Part shown: positions 15,364 to 24,628 of the stretch, piece after piece
Position numbering within the stretch: the first letter of the stretch is position 1
Layout of the letters: the number at the start of each line of letters is the position of its first letter
From: Pseudomonadota bacterium
GTDB taxonomy: Bacteria > Myxococcota > JACRCW01 > JAFGSX01
Direction of reading: 5' to 3'
NCBI GenBank assembly: GCA_043821645.1
Contig: JBDRCO010000048.1
Location: forward strand, 1-30,169
Length of the DNA: 30,169 nt
Notes under the pieces: generated by a model
The model's input: the letters and a program-made list of their open reading frames with translations, nothing else
Told to the model about the DNA's origin: nothing
The model's database searches: none
Made by a program: the position numbers and the translations under genes

Positions 15364-15379
15364 CAAGGATTTGGTGCCC

Positions 15380-18300
15380 ATGACAACGATCAACACCACT
15401 CGTCCTGGCACGAACGTTCCACCCATCACAACGACCACGACACCGGTCGACGACGCGCCCAAGGAACTCGGGGTCAAGGCGCCGGAGAGCCCGGACGCGC
15501 TCAAGCGCGACGAGGTCGGGCGGGCGGCGGCCAAGAAGCTCATCGACGTGGTCAGCGCCAACAAGGACGTCGCAGGCACGGGTCAAGAGAGCGCGGCCAG
15601 GGGCGACCCCCGGGTCACCGAGCGGCGCGGCGCCCTGTCCACCCTCATCGCCGAGAAGAGCGGCCGCGGGCCCGTGTTCATGGGCATGCTCGACGCCCTG
15701 GGCAGCAACGTGGCCAACGACGTCAAGTGGTTGATGTCGGCGGACCGCGCCGACTACAAGCTGGATGGCGACAGCAAGCAGTTCGACTGGGCCAAGAGCG
15801 ACATGAGCGGCCCATCGGCCATCAAGAAGGAGTTCGACAAGCGGGTCAAGAAGGGCCAGGAGCGCGCCAAGGGTATCGACGACCAGAGCAAGAGCTTCCT
15901 CGACGTCAGCGACTCCTCGGTCATCGGCCTGAGCTTCATCCAGGACCCCAAGCTGCGCGCCGAGTCCATGATGGACACCCTGCTGCAGTTCAGGGCCCGC
16001 ACCGACAAGGCCAACCAGGCCGAGGTCACCAGCGGTGACAACGCCACCCGCATGGACCAGATCGCACCGGCCCTGGTGGCCGAGCAGCGCATCCTGCTGG
16101 CCTCGGCCGACCTCGCCGTCGACGACCCGGTCAAGATGCGCGAGTTCGCGCTGCTGCGCGAGGTCATCGCTTCGCACCCGACCTCGTCGGTGAACGGCAT
16201 CTTCGACGCCCGCAATGCGGTCGGCAAGCTGTTCATGGACGGCAACGACAACTACTCGAGCACCACCCACGACATGGCGTGGATCAAGGAAGAAAAGGCG
16301 CCCGGCGCCACGGCCTCGGCCTACAAGGCCATCCACCACAACTTTTCCCGCGACACCCCGAACAACATCGCCTGCACCATCAAGGAGTGGGTGTTCCCGG
16401 TGGGGCCCGCCGAGCACCGCGAGAAGCTATTCCTGACCCTGTGCGACGCCGTGACCCAGGCCCGCGCCGGTCAGGGTGACGCCGTCAAGAAGCAGCTGCT
16501 GGCCCTGGGTGCGCCGACGAAGGACACGCTCCAACCGCTGCTCGACAAGCTGGCCTCGGCCAGTGGCACGGGCGTGGCCGACGCCATCGCCACCTTCATG
16601 GTCGAGAACGCCCAGAAGCCCCTGTGCGCCAGCCCGCGCAAGGCCCTGGATCAGATGGCCAAGAAGGCTGCGGACCTGGCCTCGGGCATGTACCACTACG
16701 ACAAGCCAGGCGAGTACAAGAAGATCCGCGAGGCGATCGCTGGTTACGGCGAGCCGCTGGCGACGCAACTCAAGGGCCTCAAGGACGCCATCAAGGACCT
16801 CCCCGACGAGAAGATCGGCGAGGCCATGCAGAAGTGGCTCAAGGACAACGAGAGCCTGACCCTGGTCGGCAACGTCGAGGGCAACCTGGCCATGTTCGCG
16901 CGCCTGTACCGCGCGGTGTGCGCCGACCAGCCCAACGTCGACACCCTCGAGAAGAACATCTTCAAGGCCGGCGACGCCTGGCCCGAGGTGGCCGACGTCA
17001 TCGCGCGCCTGCGCGCGGGCAATGACCTGGGCGCGCTCAAGGAACTGGGCGAGGCCCGGCTGGCCCTGCGCGACGCCGTGGTCAATGCCAAGACCGGCTT
17101 CGAGCGCCACGAGCTGATCAAGTTCGACGCCCAGCTGTCGCGCCTGACCTGCACCGAGCTCGGAGCCGCCGTCGACCGGGTGGCCGACCTCAAGACCGAC
17201 GGCCAGAAGAGCGAGGCCCTGCTCGGGGTGCAGACGGCCCTGCGCGCCGCCATCGCCAGCGGCCTGCACACCATCAAGTCCGACGACGACACCGGGGCCC
17301 GGCGCAGCACGCCCCTGGACCAGGTGCTGACCCAGGTCGACGCGGCCATCGCCTCGGGCAAGGTCAACGAGGACCAGTACCGCGAGCTCATGTGCGCCGT
17401 GTACAAGTCCACCGCCAGCACCATCCAGAACATGCGCGCCTTCGCCGATCTGCGGGCCGCCGACGTGGCCTCGGGCGGCGTGCAGCTCGACCCGATGTTC
17501 ATGGACCAGTTCGTCAAGCAGAGCCCCCTGCACTACGCCAGCGCCCTGGCCCAGAAGGGCATGCGCGTGGGCCTGCGCGAGAAGATCACGCCGCGCAGCA
17601 TCGAGAACGTCGAGGGCATGCGCGTGCTCAACAGCGTCGGCCCGGTGGTCTTCACCAGCGTGGTCACCGCCGAGAACTCGAAGCAGCTGGCCGAGATGGG
17701 CACCAGCAAGGACCAGCTCGCCGTCCTGTACAAGCTCGAGGAGAAAAAGATGGTCGCCGTGGGCGGCCTGTTCGTCGACACCGAGAACGCGCCTGGCGGC
17801 ACCAGCCACCTGAACATGGACGCCATGAACAACGGCATCCCGGTGGTGGCGCTGCCCGAGCTGCGCACCAAGTACGCCGAGTTCTTCCAAAACGCCGAGC
17901 GCGAGGGCGGCGTGTACATCGACGACCACGCGGGTGGCTTCCGCATGCTCACCGTCGACAAGGCCATCGAGGAGGGCCTGATCCCGGGCGGCGTGGCCGG
18001 TGACCCGGTGGCCAGCAAGGCCGCCATCGACAACCTGCGGCCCGGCGTCAACCGCAAGATCACCTTCCTCAAGCCCACCGACGACGGCAAGGCCTGGGAC
18101 GTGATGGCCAGGCACGACGCCATCATCAACGACGACCGCGTCACCCGCGTCATCGAGATCTACTCGCCTCAGGAGGAGGTCGCAGGCATAGGCCGCGGCT
18201 GCCCGACCTGGGCCGAGCTGGCCAAGCTGGGCACTCACGCCCGCCACCTGGCCGGCGAGAAGGGCACGGTGTTGGCCCTGCTCAGTGCGCATCCGGTGCT

Positions 18301-19408
18301 GGGCAAGTACGTGCCCCAGGGCTCGGAGATCACGCCCGGCGACATCCGCGACATGCTCAAGGTGGCCAGGGCCGACGACGGGCGGAGCATGGCCGAGCTG
18401 TGGGACAGCGTGTGGACCCAGGATCCCAAAGTCGGCATCGTCACCGACGACAACTACCTGGACAGCGCCTTTTACACCGACGCCCAGTACCGCGCCGAGA
18501 CCCGGAAGAAGCTGCAGGATCAGACCCGCGACAAGCTCGAGGCCGCGTTCATCGACCAGAGCGGCGACCCGCCCAAGCTCACCGCCGAGGGCGAGAAGAT
18601 GTACGCCAACCTGATGAAGAACCCGGCCCTGATCGAGAGCGAGACCGGCAGCCTCATCTTCCGTTCGAGCTTCACCGGCGAGGACAGGCCCGGCAAGTCG
18701 GGCGCTGGCCAGTACGAGAGCTACGTCGACCGCAAGATGGCCAAGCGCCTGTACGGCGAGCCCAAGACCAACGAGATGTTCGGCATCTACGAGGCCGCGC
18801 GCAAGGCGCTGGACGAGGCCAAAAAAGGCGGCGACCAGGCGATCATCAGCGCTGCCCAGGCCGAATACGACAAGGTGCGCGACGCCCACATCGCCTTCAT
18901 GGGCCCGGCGCGGCTCAAGTCGGCCATCGGCGTCATCGAGTCCACCTGGATGCCCGAGCCCATCGAGAACAACGTGGCCGAGGGCTTCTTCCTCAAGTAC
19001 ATCGGGCCCACCGTGGCGGTGCAGGACTGCCTCAAGCCGGACATCTCGGGCGTGACCATCTCGCGCGACGTCGAGACCGGCGCCCGCGGCCAGGTCACGG
19101 CACAGATCGTCAAGGGATTCGGCGGTGGCGTCGACGGCGGCAAGACCACCGAGGCGGTCATCGGCCAGGGCACGACCCAGCTCAAGATCGTCGACGGCCA
19201 GCCCGCGGACGGCAGCGACGTCACGGTGCAGGGCATCCAGGTCAGCGACCAGGACATGCAGACCCTGCGCACCATCGTGCTGGAGACCGAGAAGTTTTTC
19301 CACGAGACCATCGAGCCGGGCAAGGGCTACGCCGTGGACATGGAAGTGGCGCGCCACAACGGCGAGTGGAAGGTCGTGCAAGCCCGCGTCATCATGATGG
19401 ACAAGTAG
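15380..19408 (+). CDS. Dikinase of the PEP-utilising superfamily with glucan-water-dikinase-like domain order (helical N-terminal region, phospho-His domain, C-terminal ATP-grasp), 1342 aa
   Basis: Phospho-His motif GGTSHLNMDAMNNGIPVV (His codon 17807-17809) precedes the ATP-grasp motifs AGEKG (18251), VPQG, RSSFTGED...AGQYES (18662), VAVQ...SGV, GFGGGVDGG, DMEV and VVQAR. There is no PEP/pyruvate TIM barrel. AAGGA RBS; strongly biased codon usage. Confidence 0.88.
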   Translation: MTTINTTRPGTNVPPITTTTTPVDDAPKELGVKAPESPDALKRDEVGRAAAKKLIDVVSANKDVAGTGQESAARGDPRVTERRGALSTLIAEKSGRGPVFMGMLDALGSNVANDVKWLMSADRADYKLDGDSKQFDWAKSDMSGPSAIKKEFDKRVKKGQERAKGIDDQSKSFLDVSDSSVIGLSFIQDPKLRAESMMDTLLQFRARTDKANQAEVTSGDNATRMDQIAPALVAEQRILLASADLAVDDPVKMREFALLREVIASHPTSSVNGIFDARNAVGKLFMDGNDNYSSTTHDMAWIKEEKAPGATASAYKAIHHNFSRDTPNNIACTIKEWVFPVGPAEHREKLFLTLCDAVTQARAGQGDAVKKQLLALGAPTKDTLQPLLDKLASASGTGVADAIATFMVENAQKPLCASPRKALDQMAKKAADLASGMYHYDKPGEYKKIREAIAGYGEPLATQLKGLKDAIKDLPDEKIGEAMQKWLKDNESLTLVGNVEGNLAMFARLYRAVCADQPNVDTLEKNIFKAGDAWPEVADVIARLRAGNDLGALKELGEARLALRDAVVNAKTGFERHELIKFDAQLSRLTCTELGAAVDRVADLKTDGQKSEALLGVQTALRAAIASGLHTIKSDDDTGARRSTPLDQVLTQVDAAIASGKVNEDQYRELMCAVYKSTASTIQNMRAFADLRAADVASGGVQLDPMFMDQFVKQSPLHYASALAQKGMRVGLREKITPRSIENVEGMRVLNSVGPVVFTSVVTAENSKQLAEMGTSKDQLAVLYKLEEKKMVAVGGLFVDTENAPGGTSHLNMDAMNNGIPVVALPELRTKYAEFFQNAEREGGVYIDDHAGGFRMLTVDKAIEEGLIPGGVAGDPVASKAAIDNLRPGVNRKITFLKPTDDGKAWDVMARHDAIINDDRVTRVIEIYSPQEEVAGIGRGCPTWAELAKLGTHARHLAGEKGTVLALLSAHPVLGKYVPQGSEITPGDIRDMLKVARADDGRSMAELWDSVWTQDPKVGIVTDDNYLDSAFYTDAQYRAETRKKLQDQTRDKLEAAFIDQSGDPPKLTAEGEKMYANLMKNPALIESETGSLIFRSSFTGEDRPGKSGAGQYESYVDRKMAKRLYGEPKTNEMFGIYEAARKALDEAKKGGDQAIISAAQAEYDKVRDAHIAFMGPARLKSAIGVIESTWMPEPIENNVAEGFFLKYIGPTVAVQDCLKPDISGVTISRDVETGARGQVTAQIVKGFGGGVDGGKTTEAVIGQGTTQLKIVDGQPADGSDVTVQGIQVSDQDMQTLRTIVLETEKFFHETIEPGKGYAVDMEVARHNGEWKVVQARVIMMDK

Positions 19409-19465: not shown

Positions 19466-19810
19466 ATGCCTTACACGACGACGGCCAAGCAGTTCATCGA
19501 GGGCGGCAAGTTGCAGGACCTGCTGGGTCACCCGGCGACCAGTGGCCTGAAGGCTCTGATCAAGCTCGCCATCAGCGGCGACGACGGCGGCACCTGGTAC
19601 TACGACGTGGGCGACAAGAAGCTCAGCAAGAAGTCCACGGCCAAGCCCAGCTGCATCATCGAGGCCCAGGACATCGACTTCATGGCCCTGGTCGAGGGCC
19701 GCATGAGCCCTTCGGACGGCATGATCACCGAACGCCTGCATGTTGCCGGTGACACGACCCTGGTCACGCGCCTGATGACGGCGCTGAGCCAGGTGCAGCA
19801 GCAAGCTTAG
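19466..19810 (+). CDS. SCP2 sterol/lipid-binding domain protein
   Basis: IKLAISGDDGGTWYYDV...PSCIIEAQDIDFMALVEGRMSPSDGMITERLHVAGDTTLVTRL is the typical SCP2 pattern. Confidence 0.88.
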   Translation: MPYTTTAKQFIEGGKLQDLLGHPATSGLKALIKLAISGDDGGTWYYDVGDKKLSKKSTAKPSCIIEAQDIDFMALVEGRMSPSDGMITERLHVAGDTTLVTRLMTALSQVQQQA

Positions 19811-19967
19811 CTTGTCGCACGGACCCTTGACCTAGGCGGCCGACGGGTGGCGCCGAGCAGGGGGGCCCCCGCCGCGCGCAGGGACGAGCACGGTGGGGGA
19901 GGCGAGGTGACAGGACCCGTCGAAAGAGCGTGTAAGCGGGTCGGTGCGAGATGATATCGGGGGCCGC

Positions 19968-20846
19968 GTGACGACGATCTCGAGCACCACCCAGCAGACC
20001 CTGCGCGCCGTGTTCGGCGACCGCGTGCCCGCGGACGCGACGCAGGCCCTGGGTATGCTCGATGCGAGCCCGCTCAGGCCTCGAGATCCCACGGCGCTGC
20101 AGGCCCTGCGCGCGGCGGTGCTCGAGGGGGCGGCGCGATCCCTCGAGGAGCTCAAGCAGAGCAACCCGACCCTGGCCGCAACCATCCCCCCACCCTCCTC
20201 GGTCGCGCACCAGCCCATGCCACCGGCCATGGCCTTGCGCCTCAGCGAGCTGCAGCGCATCCGTGACGCGACACCCGCCGATGGCCTGCAGCGCACCGTG
20301 AGCCTGGCCCGGGCCCGCGAGCTTTTCGACATGCTCGCCGCTGCGCCCGATATCCCCCACGACTTCATCGACGAGGGCTGCCACTACCGGGCCCACGTCG
20401 AGAACAAGCGCCTTGAAGAGGCTGGGGTGTTCAGCGAGAAGATCTTCATCGTGCCCGACGGCGGCGATCTGCGCATGAACAGCGAGCACTCGCCGATCGG
20501 CTTCACCCTGGCCATGTTTCACACCGCGCCCTGCATCGCGGTCAAGCTCGACGACGGCAGCATCGAACGACGGGTGCTCGACCCCAGCATGGGGGACCAT
20601 CCCCTGACCATCGACGAGTGGTCCACCACCATGCACGGCCTCAACGGCAAGCCTTGCTCCTTCGTGGTGCTGCCGCGCTTTGCCATGCACCTGATGGACC
20701 GCGACAATCCACCCGCGACCTGGCGCCAGGCCGACCTCGACGACGCCCTGGCCTGGAACACGCAATACAAGGCCCTGCAGCAAGACATGCTGGACAGCGG
20801 TTTCTACGACAGCCTCAAGGAGATGGCCGGCGCCGCTGGGGGGTGA
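19968..20846 (+). CDS. Protein-glutamine glutaminase (deamidase) family protein, no signal peptide
   Basis: IPHDFIDEGCHYRAH (Cys, 20379), KIF, MFHTAP (His, 20520) and VLDPSM (Asp, 20580) form the Cys-His-Asp triad of protein glutaminases, with a His-Asp spacing of 20. GTG start at 19968 preferred; 19944 is an alternative. Confidence 0.85.
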   Translation: MTTISSTTQQTLRAVFGDRVPADATQALGMLDASPLRPRDPTALQALRAAVLEGAARSLEELKQSNPTLAATIPPPSSVAHQPMPPAMALRLSELQRIRDATPADGLQRTVSLARARELFDMLAAAPDIPHDFIDEGCHYRAHVENKRLEEAGVFSEKIFIVPDGGDLRMNSEHSPIGFTLAMFHTAPCIAVKLDDGSIERRVLDPSMGDHPLTIDEWSTTMHGLNGKPCSFVVLPRFAMHLMDRDNPPATWRQADLDDALAWNTQYKALQQDMLDSGFYDSLKEMAGAAGG

Positions 20847-20907
20847 GCGCCGTCGGATGTGCAACCGACGGTTATAGGGTGCCCAGTGCACCCGCAGGGG
20901 GGGAGCG

Positions 20908-21159
20908 ATGTCAGGACCACGCGAGACCAATCCTGATGCCTTGCCACTCAAGGGCAGCGTGCTGCAGCTCAGCGAGCCCCGCGACGGCAAGCACCGGGTC
21001 ACCTTCAAGGAGCTGGCGTCGATCTACTACGTCGACGACACCCACCCCGAGCGCGACCGCATCCTGGTCGCCCTGCAGCGCTCCCTCGACACAGGGGAGG
21101 TGCTGCGCCTGACCTACTCGATCCGGGACAAGTGCTTGACGGGGTTCGACGAGGGCTGA
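20908..21159 (+). CDS. Small protein resembling the inhibitory pro-domain of protein glutaminase; candidate immunity protein
   Basis: GGAG RBS. RVTFKELASIYYVDDTHPERDRILVALQRSLDTGEVLRLTY aligns by eye with the recalled pro-region pattern VxFxxxAxxYxI...LxxAxxxxxPVxI. Confidence 0.68.
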   Translation: MSGPRETNPDALPLKGSVLQLSEPRDGKHRVTFKELASIYYVDDTHPERDRILVALQRSLDTGEVLRLTYSIRDKCLTGFDEG

Positions 21160-21181: not shown

Positions 21182-24100
21182 TCACGGAGCCACGCAGATG
21201 GTCGCAGGCAGTGTCGACGTCGTGTTCGACAGCGCCACGGTGGGCGACGCAGCGTTGTAGCGCACCGTGTAGACCTGCGTCGGAACCTCGGGGGGAGCCG
21301 GGCACAAGCCATTGCAGGTATGGGTCCAGTAGGCATGGGTGGCGGTGACCTGCTTGGCGATGTCGCTGTCAATGTAGGGTGATCCCGAGCATCCCGTCGA
21401 CGCTGTGGCGGTGGCGAGCGCCTGCAGCTCAGTGAGCGTCGGAAGTCTGAAGTTCGAGTGGAACAGCGTGGTCAAACCTTGGCAGTAGCTGTATGCCTGG
21501 GCCCAGGTCCTGAAGGTGGTGCAGGTGGCCGGCACGTAATACAGCGCGCCATTCATCCTGTCGAAGACGCAGGTGTAACCTCCCCCCACCGCGAGGCACT
21601 GCGACCAGCCGTAGAACCTGTCCTGGCAGGTCCGGTCGTAGCAGATATCGTGCTGCGTGCTCGCGTCGCCATCGTTGCACGGTGTTCCGTCCGTCTTCGG
21701 ATCCCAGGTATTGCTGCCAGAGCACACCTCGCAAAAGTTCGAGGGCCGGTCGGCTCCCTGGCTGGTACAGGCTCCGGCCTCGAGACAGCTCGCTGTGCTG
21801 CTGTCCCAGTCGTGCCCGCAGGTGCTGCCACCCGTGCACAGATCTGCGGTGCAGGACAGCGTGTCGGCCGTGCAGGGTTCACTCGGGGCCTTTGGCGACC
21901 ATCCCAGCGGTCTCAGGTCCGGATCGCAATGCTCGCACTCGATCGCCGGATTGGTGAACCCTTCGGCCCGGCAATTTCCGTTGATGTAGCACTGACCTGC
22001 CGCCACCGACGAGAAGAGGCACTGCCCTGGATTGGAGCCGGAGCCACCATCACAGCGGTCCACGGTGCAGGCAAGCCCGTCGTCGTTGCAGGATGTCCCC
22101 AGGGGCTTCGGGTCTGCATGGCACTCGTAGGTCGTGCTGGTCAACTTCACGCACAGACCGTCATTGCAGGCATCGTCGAGCGAGGTGCAATTGGGTGTAC
22201 CTGGGCCAGGCTGGCAGTCCCCCGAGAGGCAGTGATCCCCGAGGGTACAGGGGTCGTCGTCGCTGCAGCTCGCCGCGTCGTCGTCCGCCAGCACGCAGGC
22301 ATGGCTGGGGCAGGTCCACTTCTGGCACGTCGGCGCCGTGCCACAGTCCTCGGGGAGGTTGCAGTTGCCCGTCACACACAGGCCGCCGGCCGAGCAGACC
22401 TTGCCGATGCCACACTCCGGTGTGTTGAGGCAGGGGGTGCAATCGCCGCTCCTGCAGATCTTGGTGCCGGACGCGCACAGGGTTCCATCGGTGACGGCAT
22501 CACCCGTCTTCTGGCCGGCGCCGTCACAGTGATCGTTGATGGTGCATTCCTTGCCGTCGTCGACCTGACCGGTGCCCCCAGTCCAGAAGGCGCAGGTTGT
22601 GCTCCCGCCCACGCATTCGCCCGTGGTCAGGCAACCGCTCACCGGCGTCCAGGTGCAATCGCTGTTGGGATCGGTGCTGGCGTCAGCCCAGCGACAGCCG
22701 CCGAAGTCGTCGCAGACCTGGCAGTCGCTGGGGCAGTCGTCGTGCGGGTCCTGCCCCGAGGCCACGAAGCTGCACTGGATGGCGCTGGCCGGTCGCTGGC
22801 AGGTGCGACAGGTTCCACAACGCGTACCTACGGTCTTGTCGACCCAGGCGTCCAGGGTTCCATCGCAGTACTGGCAGGGGTTCGCAGGATTGGGGTCACC
22901 GTGCAGATAGCAGATCCCATCGAGGAAACATCCCGTCCACGATGTCTTTTCCTCGAGGGTGCAGTCGCCTGGGCCCGTGCCATGGCACACGCCGTTGGCG
23001 CAGGAGTTTCCGGTGCAGGTGTAGCTCGCCCCTGCGCACACGCCGGGAACGGTGGCGCTGCAGGTATCGCCCTGGGTACAGGCCAGGTTGTCGTTGCAGC
23101 CCTGACCAGGATTCGGGCTCCAGGCAAAGGGCGTGGTCAGCCGAGTGCATCGGGAACACACGTCGTTGGCCTTCGTGTCGCCCTCGTCCAGTACCAGGCC
23201 GTCGATCCAGCAGGCTCCATCAACACAGGCGCCTCCCGCACAGACCCGACCTGTCCCGCACTCGCCAGCGAGGCAGTCACGGCACTCGAAGGTGTCGCAG
23301 ATGCGCTGCCCGCCCGCACACTGGTTGTCGTTGGTGCAACCCACGCAGCTCTGACTCGAGGTATTGCAGGTCATGCCCTGGCCCGTGCAGTAGCTGTCAT
23401 CGCCGGTCGTGCAATCCACACAGGCCGCCTGGTCGCACACGCGACCGAGTGCGCATTCTACCACGTCGTTGCACTGGGCCAGGACGCAGGACCCGGACAC
23501 ACACAGCACGCTCGACGGGTAGCCGTTGACCTGGCAGTCGTCGAGGGTGGCCAGAGCGTCGTTGGCGCAAGCGCGACAGGTGTAGTCCTCGCACACGCCA
23601 TTGCTGGGCGAGCTACAGGGCTCGGCGTTGGGGAAGCAATTGCCGGCCTCGCAGCGCCCGGTGTCGACGTCGCACACATAACCACTCGCCACGCCGGCCC
23701 GCGCCAGGCACTCGGCGGTGGACTGGCACGAACGGCAACGAGAATCGCTGCCGCACACCGGACGGTCTGCCGGGCAGCCCGTCGAGTCCAGGCAGTTGGC
23801 CTCGACGCAGCGTCCGGATACACACAGGGTGCCGGCCGCGTAGCCGCCGTGCAGGCTGTCCAGGCAGTCCGGAGCCTGATCGCAGGTCTCACAACGTCCC
23901 GCCGTCGAGCACACCAGCTTGACCAGCTGGCAATCCGTGCCGGCCGTGCAGGTGGTGGGAGCGCAGGTACCATCGCTCTGGCAAGCGAGCGCGGAGTCGC
24001 CATAGGCGTCGCGGCAGGCCTGGTCGTCTGTGCCAGGAACACAGGCGGTGCACAGGCTCGACGTCGTGCACAGTCCACCGGAGCAGTCTGCCGCCGCCAT

Positions 24101-24628
24101 GCACGCGTCGCACACACCGTCGACGCAGCCCTCCCCGCTCCGGCACTCCTGCGCCACTCGGCAACTGTTGCATTCGCCAGTGGTGGTACGACAGCCGAGA
24201 CCGTCGTCGCACTGCACAGCACCCGTGCACGGTCCGCACACGCCGCCGACGCAACCCTCTCGCAACGAGACCCGGCAATCGGCGCCACCGTGGCAGGTGC
24301 CGCAATGGCCCTGGTAGCAGCCCTGGCCGCTCGGGCATTGCTCCGCGCCGGTGCAGGAGCCGCCATCACCCACGACGACATCCGCCGCGGCACCATCCGT
24401 GCCCGCCGCGTCTGTCGTTGCCCGATCTGCAGATCCTGCGTCCGAGAGGGCGCCATCCACGGCTGCTGCGTCCAGGGTGAGGCCGTCCTGTGCCACGGTA
24501 TCGGTCGTCGCGGCGTCGCGCGGGGTCGAGCCGTCTGCATTGCTGGGGGTCTCGGGTGGACAACCCAGCCCAAGGAACGAGGTCGCCACGACAACACACA
24601 CGAGGACAGTGCGACGGGACATGATCAT
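21182..24628 (-). CDS. Large Cys-rich repeat lipoprotein with C-terminal DUF1566/Lcl (C-type lectin fold) domain
   Basis: Lipobox FLGLGC, Asp/Ala linker and >100 Cys in repeats. C-terminal TWAQAYSYCQGL...FRLPTLTELQAL...YWT. Alternative start at 24622. Confidence 0.85.
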   Translation of the reverse strand: MIMSRRTVLVCVVVATSFLGLGCPPETPSNADGSTPRDAATTDTVAQDGLTLDAAAVDGALSDAGSADRATTDAAGTDGAAADVVVGDGGSCTGAEQCPSGQGCYQGHCGTCHGGADCRVSLREGCVGGVCGPCTGAVQCDDGLGCRTTTGECNSCRVAQECRSGEGCVDGVCDACMAAADCSGGLCTTSSLCTACVPGTDDQACRDAYGDSALACQSDGTCAPTTCTAGTDCQLVKLVCSTAGRCETCDQAPDCLDSLHGGYAAGTLCVSGRCVEANCLDSTGCPADRPVCGSDSRCRSCQSTAECLARAGVASGYVCDVDTGRCEAGNCFPNAEPCSSPSNGVCEDYTCRACANDALATLDDCQVNGYPSSVLCVSGSCVLAQCNDVVECALGRVCDQAACVDCTTGDDSYCTGQGMTCNTSSQSCVGCTNDNQCAGGQRICDTFECRDCLAGECGTGRVCAGGACVDGACWIDGLVLDEGDTKANDVCSRCTRLTTPFAWSPNPGQGCNDNLACTQGDTCSATVPGVCAGASYTCTGNSCANGVCHGTGPGDCTLEEKTSWTGCFLDGICYLHGDPNPANPCQYCDGTLDAWVDKTVGTRCGTCRTCQRPASAIQCSFVASGQDPHDDCPSDCQVCDDFGGCRWADASTDPNSDCTWTPVSGCLTTGECVGGSTTCAFWTGGTGQVDDGKECTINDHCDGAGQKTGDAVTDGTLCASGTKICRSGDCTPCLNTPECGIGKVCSAGGLCVTGNCNLPEDCGTAPTCQKWTCPSHACVLADDDAASCSDDDPCTLGDHCLSGDCQPGPGTPNCTSLDDACNDGLCVKLTSTTYECHADPKPLGTSCNDDGLACTVDRCDGGSGSNPGQCLFSSVAAGQCYINGNCRAEGFTNPAIECEHCDPDLRPLGWSPKAPSEPCTADTLSCTADLCTGGSTCGHDWDSSTASCLEAGACTSQGADRPSNFCEVCSGSNTWDPKTDGTPCNDGDASTQHDICYDRTCQDRFYGWSQCLAVGGGYTCVFDRMNGALYYVPATCTTFRTWAQAYSYCQGLTTLFHSNFRLPTLTELQALATATASTGCSGSPYIDSDIAKQVTATHAYWTHTCNGLCPAPPEVPTQVYTVRYNAASPTVALSNTTSTLPATICVAP
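21620..24360 (-). repeat. Cys-rich tandem protein repeats
   Basis: Six CxDxxxCTxxDxC-like units (CNDNLACTQGDTC, DDGKECTINDHC, CSDDDPCTLGDHC, CNDDGLACTVDRC, CTADTLSCTADLC, CNDGDASTQHDIC). Four C[WFYL][ILE]xGx..CxxC units. Many CxxxxxC..GxxCxxGxC units. Confidence 0.75.

Follow-up and report, generated by a model that had tools for sequence, protein, structure and literature searches.

A two-gene arrangement in a Myxococcota genome appears to separate an enzyme of the protein-glutaminase (PG) family from its pro-domain. The genes lie on the forward strand of a 30,169-nucleotide stretch of DNA (GenBank assembly GCA_043821645.1, contig JBDRCO010000048.1, positions 1 to 30,169; the whole stretch is called the window here) from a bacterium deposited as Pseudomonadota and placed by GTDB in the Myxococcota. 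The first gene encodes a deamidase, and the second, directly downstream, encodes a protein of 83 amino acids (aa). Judged by sequence profiles and modelled structures, the deamidase is an enzyme without a pro-domain of its own, and the small protein is homologous to the PG pro-domain but encoded on its own. The small protein probably acts as a trans inhibitor of the deamidase, the two forming an enzyme/inhibitor module. The cis pro-domain of PG and the trans-acting propeptide-analogue inhibitor of the SpeB-Spi system are already known; what is new is that a PG-family deamidase lacks the cis pro-domain and retains it as an independent gene, which in one lineage occupies the position of a type VI secretion system (T6SS) immunity gene.

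Relationship of the two proteins to protein-glutaminase

The features of the pair, with the evidence for each, are the following (AF2, AlphaFold2; OB, oligonucleotide/oligosaccharide-binding; pro-PG, PG with its pro-domain).

19968..20846, forward strand: gene for a PG-family glutamine deamidase of 292 aa (open reading frame (ORF), PF18626, homologues, AF2 fold)
19968..20282, forward strand: N-terminal helical domain, approximately residues 1-105, located where relatives carry the pro-domain (AF2/DSSP)
20379..20381, forward strand: TGC codon of Cys138, the catalytic nucleophile (sequence, PG alignment, homologues)
20520..20522, forward strand: CAC codon of His185 (sequence, PG alignment, homologues)
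20580..20582, forward strand: GAC codon of Asp205 (sequence, PG alignment, homologues)
20897..20905, forward strand: G-rich Shine-Dalgarno-like run GGGGGGGAG, which ends in GGAG 2 nt before the ATG of the small gene (sequence only)
20908..21159, forward strand: gene for an 83-aa OB-fold protein, a putative trans inhibitor or immunity protein (relatives, AF2, pro-PG matches, linkage)
21016..21018, forward strand: GCG codon of Ala37 in the beta2-beta3 loop, the equivalent of Ala47 in the PG pro-region (chained profile alignments)

The deamidase ORF could also begin at a GTG at 19944, giving a protein of 300 aa with eight additional residues; the shorter, 292-aa start is the one used by the database copy (P0001) and by all homologues. 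The protein matches the Pfam family PF18626 (Gln_deamidase_2) with an E value of 2.6e-16; the match spans residues 125-230 in the numbering of the 300-aa form, and its score of 60.2 bits exceeds the cut-off of 25. A PF18626 search of the source genome recovers the protein at 62.9 bits as the single copy. Against NF040782, the NCBIfam equivalog for Chryseobacterium PG, it scores 34.8 bits where the cut-off is 250, and it does not belong to that narrower group. Searching PDB sequences with phmmer returns protein-glutaminases only (8z3i, 2ksv/2zk9, 3a54 and 3a56). In the phmmer alignment Cys138, His185 and Asp205 pair with chain residues C42, H83 and D103 of mature PG (2ksv/2zk9), which we take to be the PG catalytic triad. 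An earlier annotation made from the letters alone (the first-pass annotation) had already read an intact Cys138-His185-Asp205 triad, and all three residues are invariant in the 19 homologues collected, which span 46-100% identity. The enzyme is predicted to convert protein glutamine to glutamate.

The AF2 model of the deamidase (pLDDT 87.8) opens with five helices, the last ending near residue 101, and continues with an alpha/beta domain. Foldseek ranks 1-6 for this model are all PG entries (E 2.8e-9 to 3.6e-8), the best being 2ksv (TM score 0.72, target-normalised; E 2.8e-9). The pro-PG alignments extend over no more than about 175-198 columns, matching the mature enzyme in size and corresponding to the catalytic part. 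The N-terminal region, approximately residues 1-105, has DSSP helices at 6-16, 24-33, 41-65, 67-71 and 86-101; it has no Pfam match, a structure Atlas offers nothing usable for it, and hhalign assigns a probability of 0.2% to a relation with the profile of the small protein and pro-domain. The view that this helical N-terminus is unrelated to the pro-domain is borne out, and the possibility that it might turn out to be a canonical pro-domain did not hold. Neither protein has an N-terminal hydrophobic segment by a crude hydropathy test (the highest Kyte-Doolittle mean over any 10 residues among the first 45 is 1.06 for the deamidase and 0.92 for the small protein, against 2.4-3.6 in signal-peptide-bearing relatives), in agreement with the earlier remark that the deamidase lacks a signal peptide.

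The ATG of the small gene (20908) lies 61 nt beyond the TGA stop codon of the deamidase (20844-20846) and, as first described, has its own putative ribosome-binding site in the form of the G-run ending in GGAG. Single-sequence searches with the small protein find no Pfam, NCBIfam or PDB sequence match, and it has only two close database relatives. With tblastn, a homologue is found directly after a deamidase homologue in four of four Myxococcota loci (L001-L004); a fifth locus, L005, is a weak partial match to the enzyme only. A seven-sequence family profile, run against 1.84 billion representatives, gives 32 matches at E <= 1e-3, comprising 25 stand-alone proteins of 73-106 aa, six long repeat proteins and one further protein, P0054. 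The six long matches (four PAS-repeat, one DUF5801 and one SpaA) were set aside as sums of weak repeat matches, and the C-terminal extension of P0019, considered as a relative of the small protein, is unrelated (BLASTP E 3.8). Promoter and terminator scans are uninformative. Its occurrence in other genomes, judged by sequence, indicates that the small ORF is a real gene.

A model of the small protein built from the 32-sequence alignment (AF2, pLDDT 88.1) comprises five beta-strands and a single helix that separates the third from the fourth strand. Among 350,542 PDB chains, Foldseek places pro-PG at ranks 1-4 (3a56_A, 3a54_A, 3a56_B and 8z3i), with a best match of E 8.9e-4, TM 0.74 and a root-mean-square deviation (rmsd) of 2.6 over 77 columns; the next matches are B subunits of AB5 toxins, generic OB folds, at E ~3e-2. 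Re-alignment to pro-PG with VIA gives Z scores of 9.7 and 9.4, pairing model residues 8-83 with chain residues 19-93, within the pro-region (for 3a56_B, Z 9.7 and rmsd 2.2 with 73 aligned, model 8-82 on chain 19-91). An exhaustive VIA comparison with 48,161 representative chains also places 3a54_A first (Z 9.4), followed by a rank 2 at Z 8.2, with 8z3i at rank 13 (Z 6.8) and aligned within its pro-region. The fold match is not circular, since the small-protein model was built without templates and without PG sequences. In the structure Atlas, the small protein matches a cluster in which 100% of the members carry PF18626.

The relationship is also visible between profiles. P0054 is a truncated fused protein in which the small-protein module (residues 62-118) precedes a PF18626 domain, and hhalign relates the small family to it with a probability of 96% (E 3e-9). 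Against 40 cis-fused PG proteins the probability is 96.6% (E 6.7e-10, 72 columns). These belong to a family (alignment A5) of at least 291 proteins from many phyla, about 350-430 aa long and carrying a PF18626 domain; several are named "protein-glutamine glutaminase family protein", and P0054 is a member. In the N-terminal region of these proteins the OB-like module of the small ORF recurs, but fused and apparently as a tandem pair; a signal peptide is absent from all 10 sequences inspected. The profile of this cis-fused family matches 3a54_A in a single alignment (E 2.4e-41) that spans chain residues 35-280 and therefore passes through the pro-region seen in the crystal. The motifs of that region quoted in the first-pass annotation are indeed present in 3a56/3a54 in this HMMER alignment, and chaining the alignments reproduces the register it proposed, in which Ala37 corresponds to PG Ala47; the invariant Tyr40 likewise falls on PG Tyr50. 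The hhalign match and the structural searches together bear out its central suggestion of a pro-domain encoded separately.

Of the 32 small-family members, 26 have alanine at the Ala37 position, and every one has Gly, Ala or Ser at the following position. The Ala47-equivalent column of the 40 cis-fused sequences (P0055 residue 111) contains His (20), Gln (11), Ser (6), Asn (2) and Thr (1). The natural Gln in this column recalls the engineered A47Q pro-PG named in PDB titles.

Conservation and genomic context of the gene pair

The survey of homologous gene pairs that had been proposed as a check returns a consistent linkage. Nine loci are informative, in that they contain a single-domain small-family member and enough upstream sequence, and in eight of them (the window, L001-L004, L012, L018 and L019) a PF18626 gene lies directly upstream of the small gene. 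The exception is L013, a lone divergent small-family member; L017, at a contig edge, was left out of the count. Stop and start codons overlap (ATGA or GTGA) at five junctions, are 4 nt apart at one and 61 nt apart in the window, with L012 excluded from this tally. Enzyme and partner divergence correlate (r = 0.94 over 28 locus pairs), as expected of genes inherited together.

The pairing is one of several arrangements in which PF18626 occurs. Of 401 Myxococcota genomes sampled, 9 contain the small family and 38 contain PF18626, the latter at 50 places. Loci were examined for 30 of these places: six have an adjacent small gene, one (L024) is cis-fused, one (L023) is cut by a contig end, and 22, including architectures with PPC or ankyrin domains, have no module at E <= 5. 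On a catalytic-domain tree (FastTree, midpoint-rooted, without support values, all 62 input sequences kept), the partner-bearing enzymes fall on three separate branches, and the cis forms fall in one clade. Three Myxococcota ORFs contain two tandem small modules each (L014 1462-2169, minus strand; L015 985-1722, plus strand; L016 400-1671, plus strand), with no PF18626 domain found within their ~3-kb loci. These may be free double pro-domain proteins; one of the three also has weak EGF-like matches.

In one relative the surroundings point to a secretion system. On a contig of genome G012 (L020 6144-9583, minus strand), a VgrG gene is followed by a gene for a deamidase with a PAAR motif at its N-terminus (E 1.4e-14) and a PF18626 domain, and then by a gene for a small-family protein, which lies in an AT-rich region and has an ambiguous true start. 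This appears to be the standard layout of a type VI effector and its immunity protein, and it is the strongest support for the idea of immunity; the putative role of the arrangement in at least this relative would be that of a type VI effector with an immunity protein. Like such effector-immunity pairs, the window pair has a small co-oriented gene directly downstream of the candidate toxin gene; a T6SS marker on or next to the effector is found in the G012 relative and not in the window. Type II toxin-antitoxin modules have a DNA-binding antitoxin, usually encoded first, and the small gene of the window is second and predicts an OB fold. Two further pairs come from metagenomic, low-GC DNA (L018, 248-1305; L019, 2159-3306) and have overlapping stop and start codons.

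Possible roles of the small protein

In the inhibitor model that we favour, the deamidase would be a cytoplasmic papain-fold enzyme that converts Gln to Glu via a thioester on Cys138, with His185 and Asp205 assisting, and a lineage-specific helical domain would occupy the N-terminal position held by the pro-domain in relatives. The PG pro-region presumably covers the active site with Ala47, and A47Q pro-PG presumably traps an enzyme-substrate state, as PDB titles also indicate. By homology with pro-PG and its covered active site, the most likely position of the small protein is on top of the catalytic cleft. There the conserved beta2-beta3 loop, with Leu36-Ala37-Ser38 and the invariant Tyr40 after them, would face Cys138. 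The deamidase would be kept inactive until separation from its partner, whether by export of the enzyme, by degradation of the small protein or by its displacement. We infer binding, inhibition, toxicity and the route of release for the window pair in this way.

A broader proposal, which we offer only tentatively, is that PG-type deamidases include an undescribed class of delivered toxins. The antidote would be a fissioned OB-fold pro-domain whose Ala loop plugs the catalytic Cys, with the G012 enzyme delivered by a T6SS and the window enzyme delivered by means of its helical N-terminal domain.

Several observations weigh against these proposals, and the immunity role suggested by the first-pass annotation is only partly sustained: the G012 cassette of vgrG, PAAR-deamidase and small protein speaks for it, and the first three of the following points speak against it. 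The source genome, at 94.7% completeness, yielded neither TssC (VipB) nor VgrG (Phage_GPD). For L035-L038, four enzymes closely related to that of the window (E 1e-73 to 1e-81 with the A1 profile, all from one taxonomic family), a search at E <= 5 detects no small-protein gene in the ~3-kb loci, so the partner cannot be obligatory; the catalytic motifs are intact in the partner-less L036 and L038. In L018 and L019, both the enzyme and its partner have signal-peptide-like N-termini, and an exported enzyme whose pro-domain is supplied in trans explains these pairs no less well than a toxin with its immunity protein does. No secretion marker is found on the deamidase, on which PF18626 is the only domain detected, or elsewhere in the window, and PADLOC returns no matches for the four operon proteins. 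The structural margin of pro-PG over generic OB folds is modest (about 1.2 Z), and the small-family profiles alone, built from 7 or 32 sequences, do not match pro-PG among PDB sequences at E <= 10. (The top PDB sequence matches of those profiles, LSm7, TagU and OrfX2, have E > 1 and were discarded as chance.) In metatranscriptome data, contigs from run 1 cover only 19694-19885 and run 2 gives none, which has no bearing on expression.

Some of the same observations could be read differently. Pro-domains often act as folding catalysts, and it may be that the small protein, as a homologue of a pro-domain, is mainly a trans folding chaperone (foldase) of the deamidase, with any inhibition incidental. 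The signal peptides on both partners in L018 and L019 would bring the two together in the same compartment after export, and the stop/start overlap at five junctions would favour their co-production. Such a role is nonetheless unlikely: the close enzymes L035-L038 have no partner, so the fold does not require the small protein, AF2 models the enzyme confidently on its own (weak evidence), and the G012 layout is that of an effector and an immunity protein.

Still less probable is an intracellular module of the toxin-antitoxin type, in which degradation of a labile small protein would let the deamidase act on proteins of the cell that makes it, without any export. The lack of signal peptides on both window proteins, the lack of detected T6SS core genes in the genome, the tight coupling of the genes in relatives and the patchy distribution of the small family (9 of 401 Myxococcota genomes) are all compatible with this model. 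However, the toxin gene comes first, and no helix-turn-helix or ribbon-helix-helix match or other DNA-binding domain is detected in the small protein (Pfam, NCBIfam and the AF2 fold). The module is also present as a single genomic copy, PADLOC does not recognise it, and relatives are linked to the T6SS or to Sec export.

A role for the small protein as a secretion chaperone or adaptor, passing the deamidase to an export machine (for example a type-III-like system) without inhibiting the active site, is very improbable. Two full-length FHIPEP (FlhA/SctV) genes occur elsewhere in the source genome, on contigs C86 and C70 (L021 and L022), and there are therefore two type-III-like export systems in this organism; the deamidase, moreover, has no signal peptide and has an uncharacterised N-terminal domain. 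Type III chaperones are typically acidic, however, and the small proteins are mostly basic (isoelectric point 7.9-9.5 in 7 of 8). The homology points to a pro-domain that covers the cleft, and no secretion genes were found in the window. Chance adjacency of a generic OB-fold protein is disfavoured to the point of being scarcely credible: OB folds are common, those outside PG score only about 1.2 Z below pro-PG and direct PDB profile searches missed pro-PG, but the pair persists in eight of nine loci, which represent three or more distinct branches of the enzyme tree, the small family is linked to cis-fused PG proteins at the profile level, and its Atlas match lies in a cluster whose members all carry PF18626.

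If the small protein does inhibit the deamidase, the pair would show a covalent zymogen pro-domain turned into a detachable inhibitor or immunity protein, and would tie protein-glutaminase, an enzyme of the food industry, to interbacterial toxins. It would also provide a PG-type deamidase that is switched by adding or removing a small protein and not by proteolysis; a PG-type enzyme that needs no proteolytic activation, as the first-pass annotation proposed, is plausible on this basis. The model, if true, would give a name and a predicted role to hypothetical proteins of ~75-105 aa from several phyla, would flag a PAAR-linked type of deamidase effector, and would imply that a zymogen can give rise to an immunity protein when its pro-domain is split off.

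Comparable systems and neighbouring genes

The closest characterised systems are pro-PG from Chryseobacterium proteolyticum (3A54/3A55/3A56; mature enzyme 2ZK9/2KSV) and the Flavobacterium PG (8Z3I), which have the same catalytic fold and Cys-His-Asp positions as the window enzyme. Their pro-region (chain ~19-93) has the fold of the small protein, with Ala47 in the position of Ala37. PG has a covalent N-terminal pro-domain and a signal peptide and is activated by proteolysis, in part according to PMC6132073. In the window, by contrast, the pro-domain is a separate gene, no signal peptide is found on either protein, and the enzyme has an unrelated helical N-terminal domain.

Small inhibitors encoded next to papain-superfamily enzymes offer a second comparison. 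In Streptococcus pyogenes, a small inhibitor gene lies beside the gene for the papain-superfamily protease SpeB, and the inhibitor, Spi, is termed a "propeptide analogue" in PMC2873492. The SpeB-Spi and staphopain-staphostatin pairs resemble the window pair in that the gene for a papain-superfamily enzyme is followed by the gene for a small, specific inhibitor. SpeB and staphopain differ from the window enzyme in being Sec-secreted proteases with propeptides of their own, whereas the window enzyme is a deamidase without a cis pro-domain. Staphostatins have a lipocalin-like fold, whereas the small protein is predicted to have an OB fold. Type VI PAAR-toxin/immunity cassettes have the same gene order as G012, where the small-family gene takes the immunity position; unlike them, the window enzyme has no PAAR domain, and its genome has no detected TssC or VgrG.

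PMC10318531 notes PF18626 near Dot/Icm genes, and a paper on toxins of extracellular contractile injection systems (PMC11297309) cites the PG structure only for the concept of the triad. Glutaminase and propeptide are not mentioned in PMC11148199 or in the first 300,000 characters of Zhang 2012. In the literature searched, with subscription journals outside its scope, no PG-family enzyme is described as having its pro-domain in trans or as being paired with an immunity protein.

Upstream of the pair are two genes that are conserved as neighbours in some relatives.

15371..19408, forward strand: 1345-aa protein with a C-terminal PPDK_N domain (PF01326, E 4e-15)
19466..19810, forward strand: SCP2-domain gene (PF02036, E 4.7e-12)

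The giant PPDK_N ORF and the SCP2 gene are also found upstream of the pair in L001 (103-4073) and L002 (1-3971), and are not conserved in L003 and L004. The PPDK_N, SCP2, deamidase and small genes abut or overlap in L001 and L002, and this spacing suggests that the four genes may form one operon in L001.

Between the SCP2 and deamidase genes of the window is a repeat of about 78 nt (19841-19918), present at 7 genomic places including this one, which is 76-97% identical to the others. Its predicted hairpin is no better than those of shuffled sequences (z -1.07). Metagenome contigs join the repeat to other flanks, with a higher summed depth there. Downstream of the pair, a convergent gene (21182-24628, minus strand) encodes a cysteine-rich protein of 1148 aa, which has a weak match to Lcl_C, below the cut-off, and an N-terminal hydrophobic segment.

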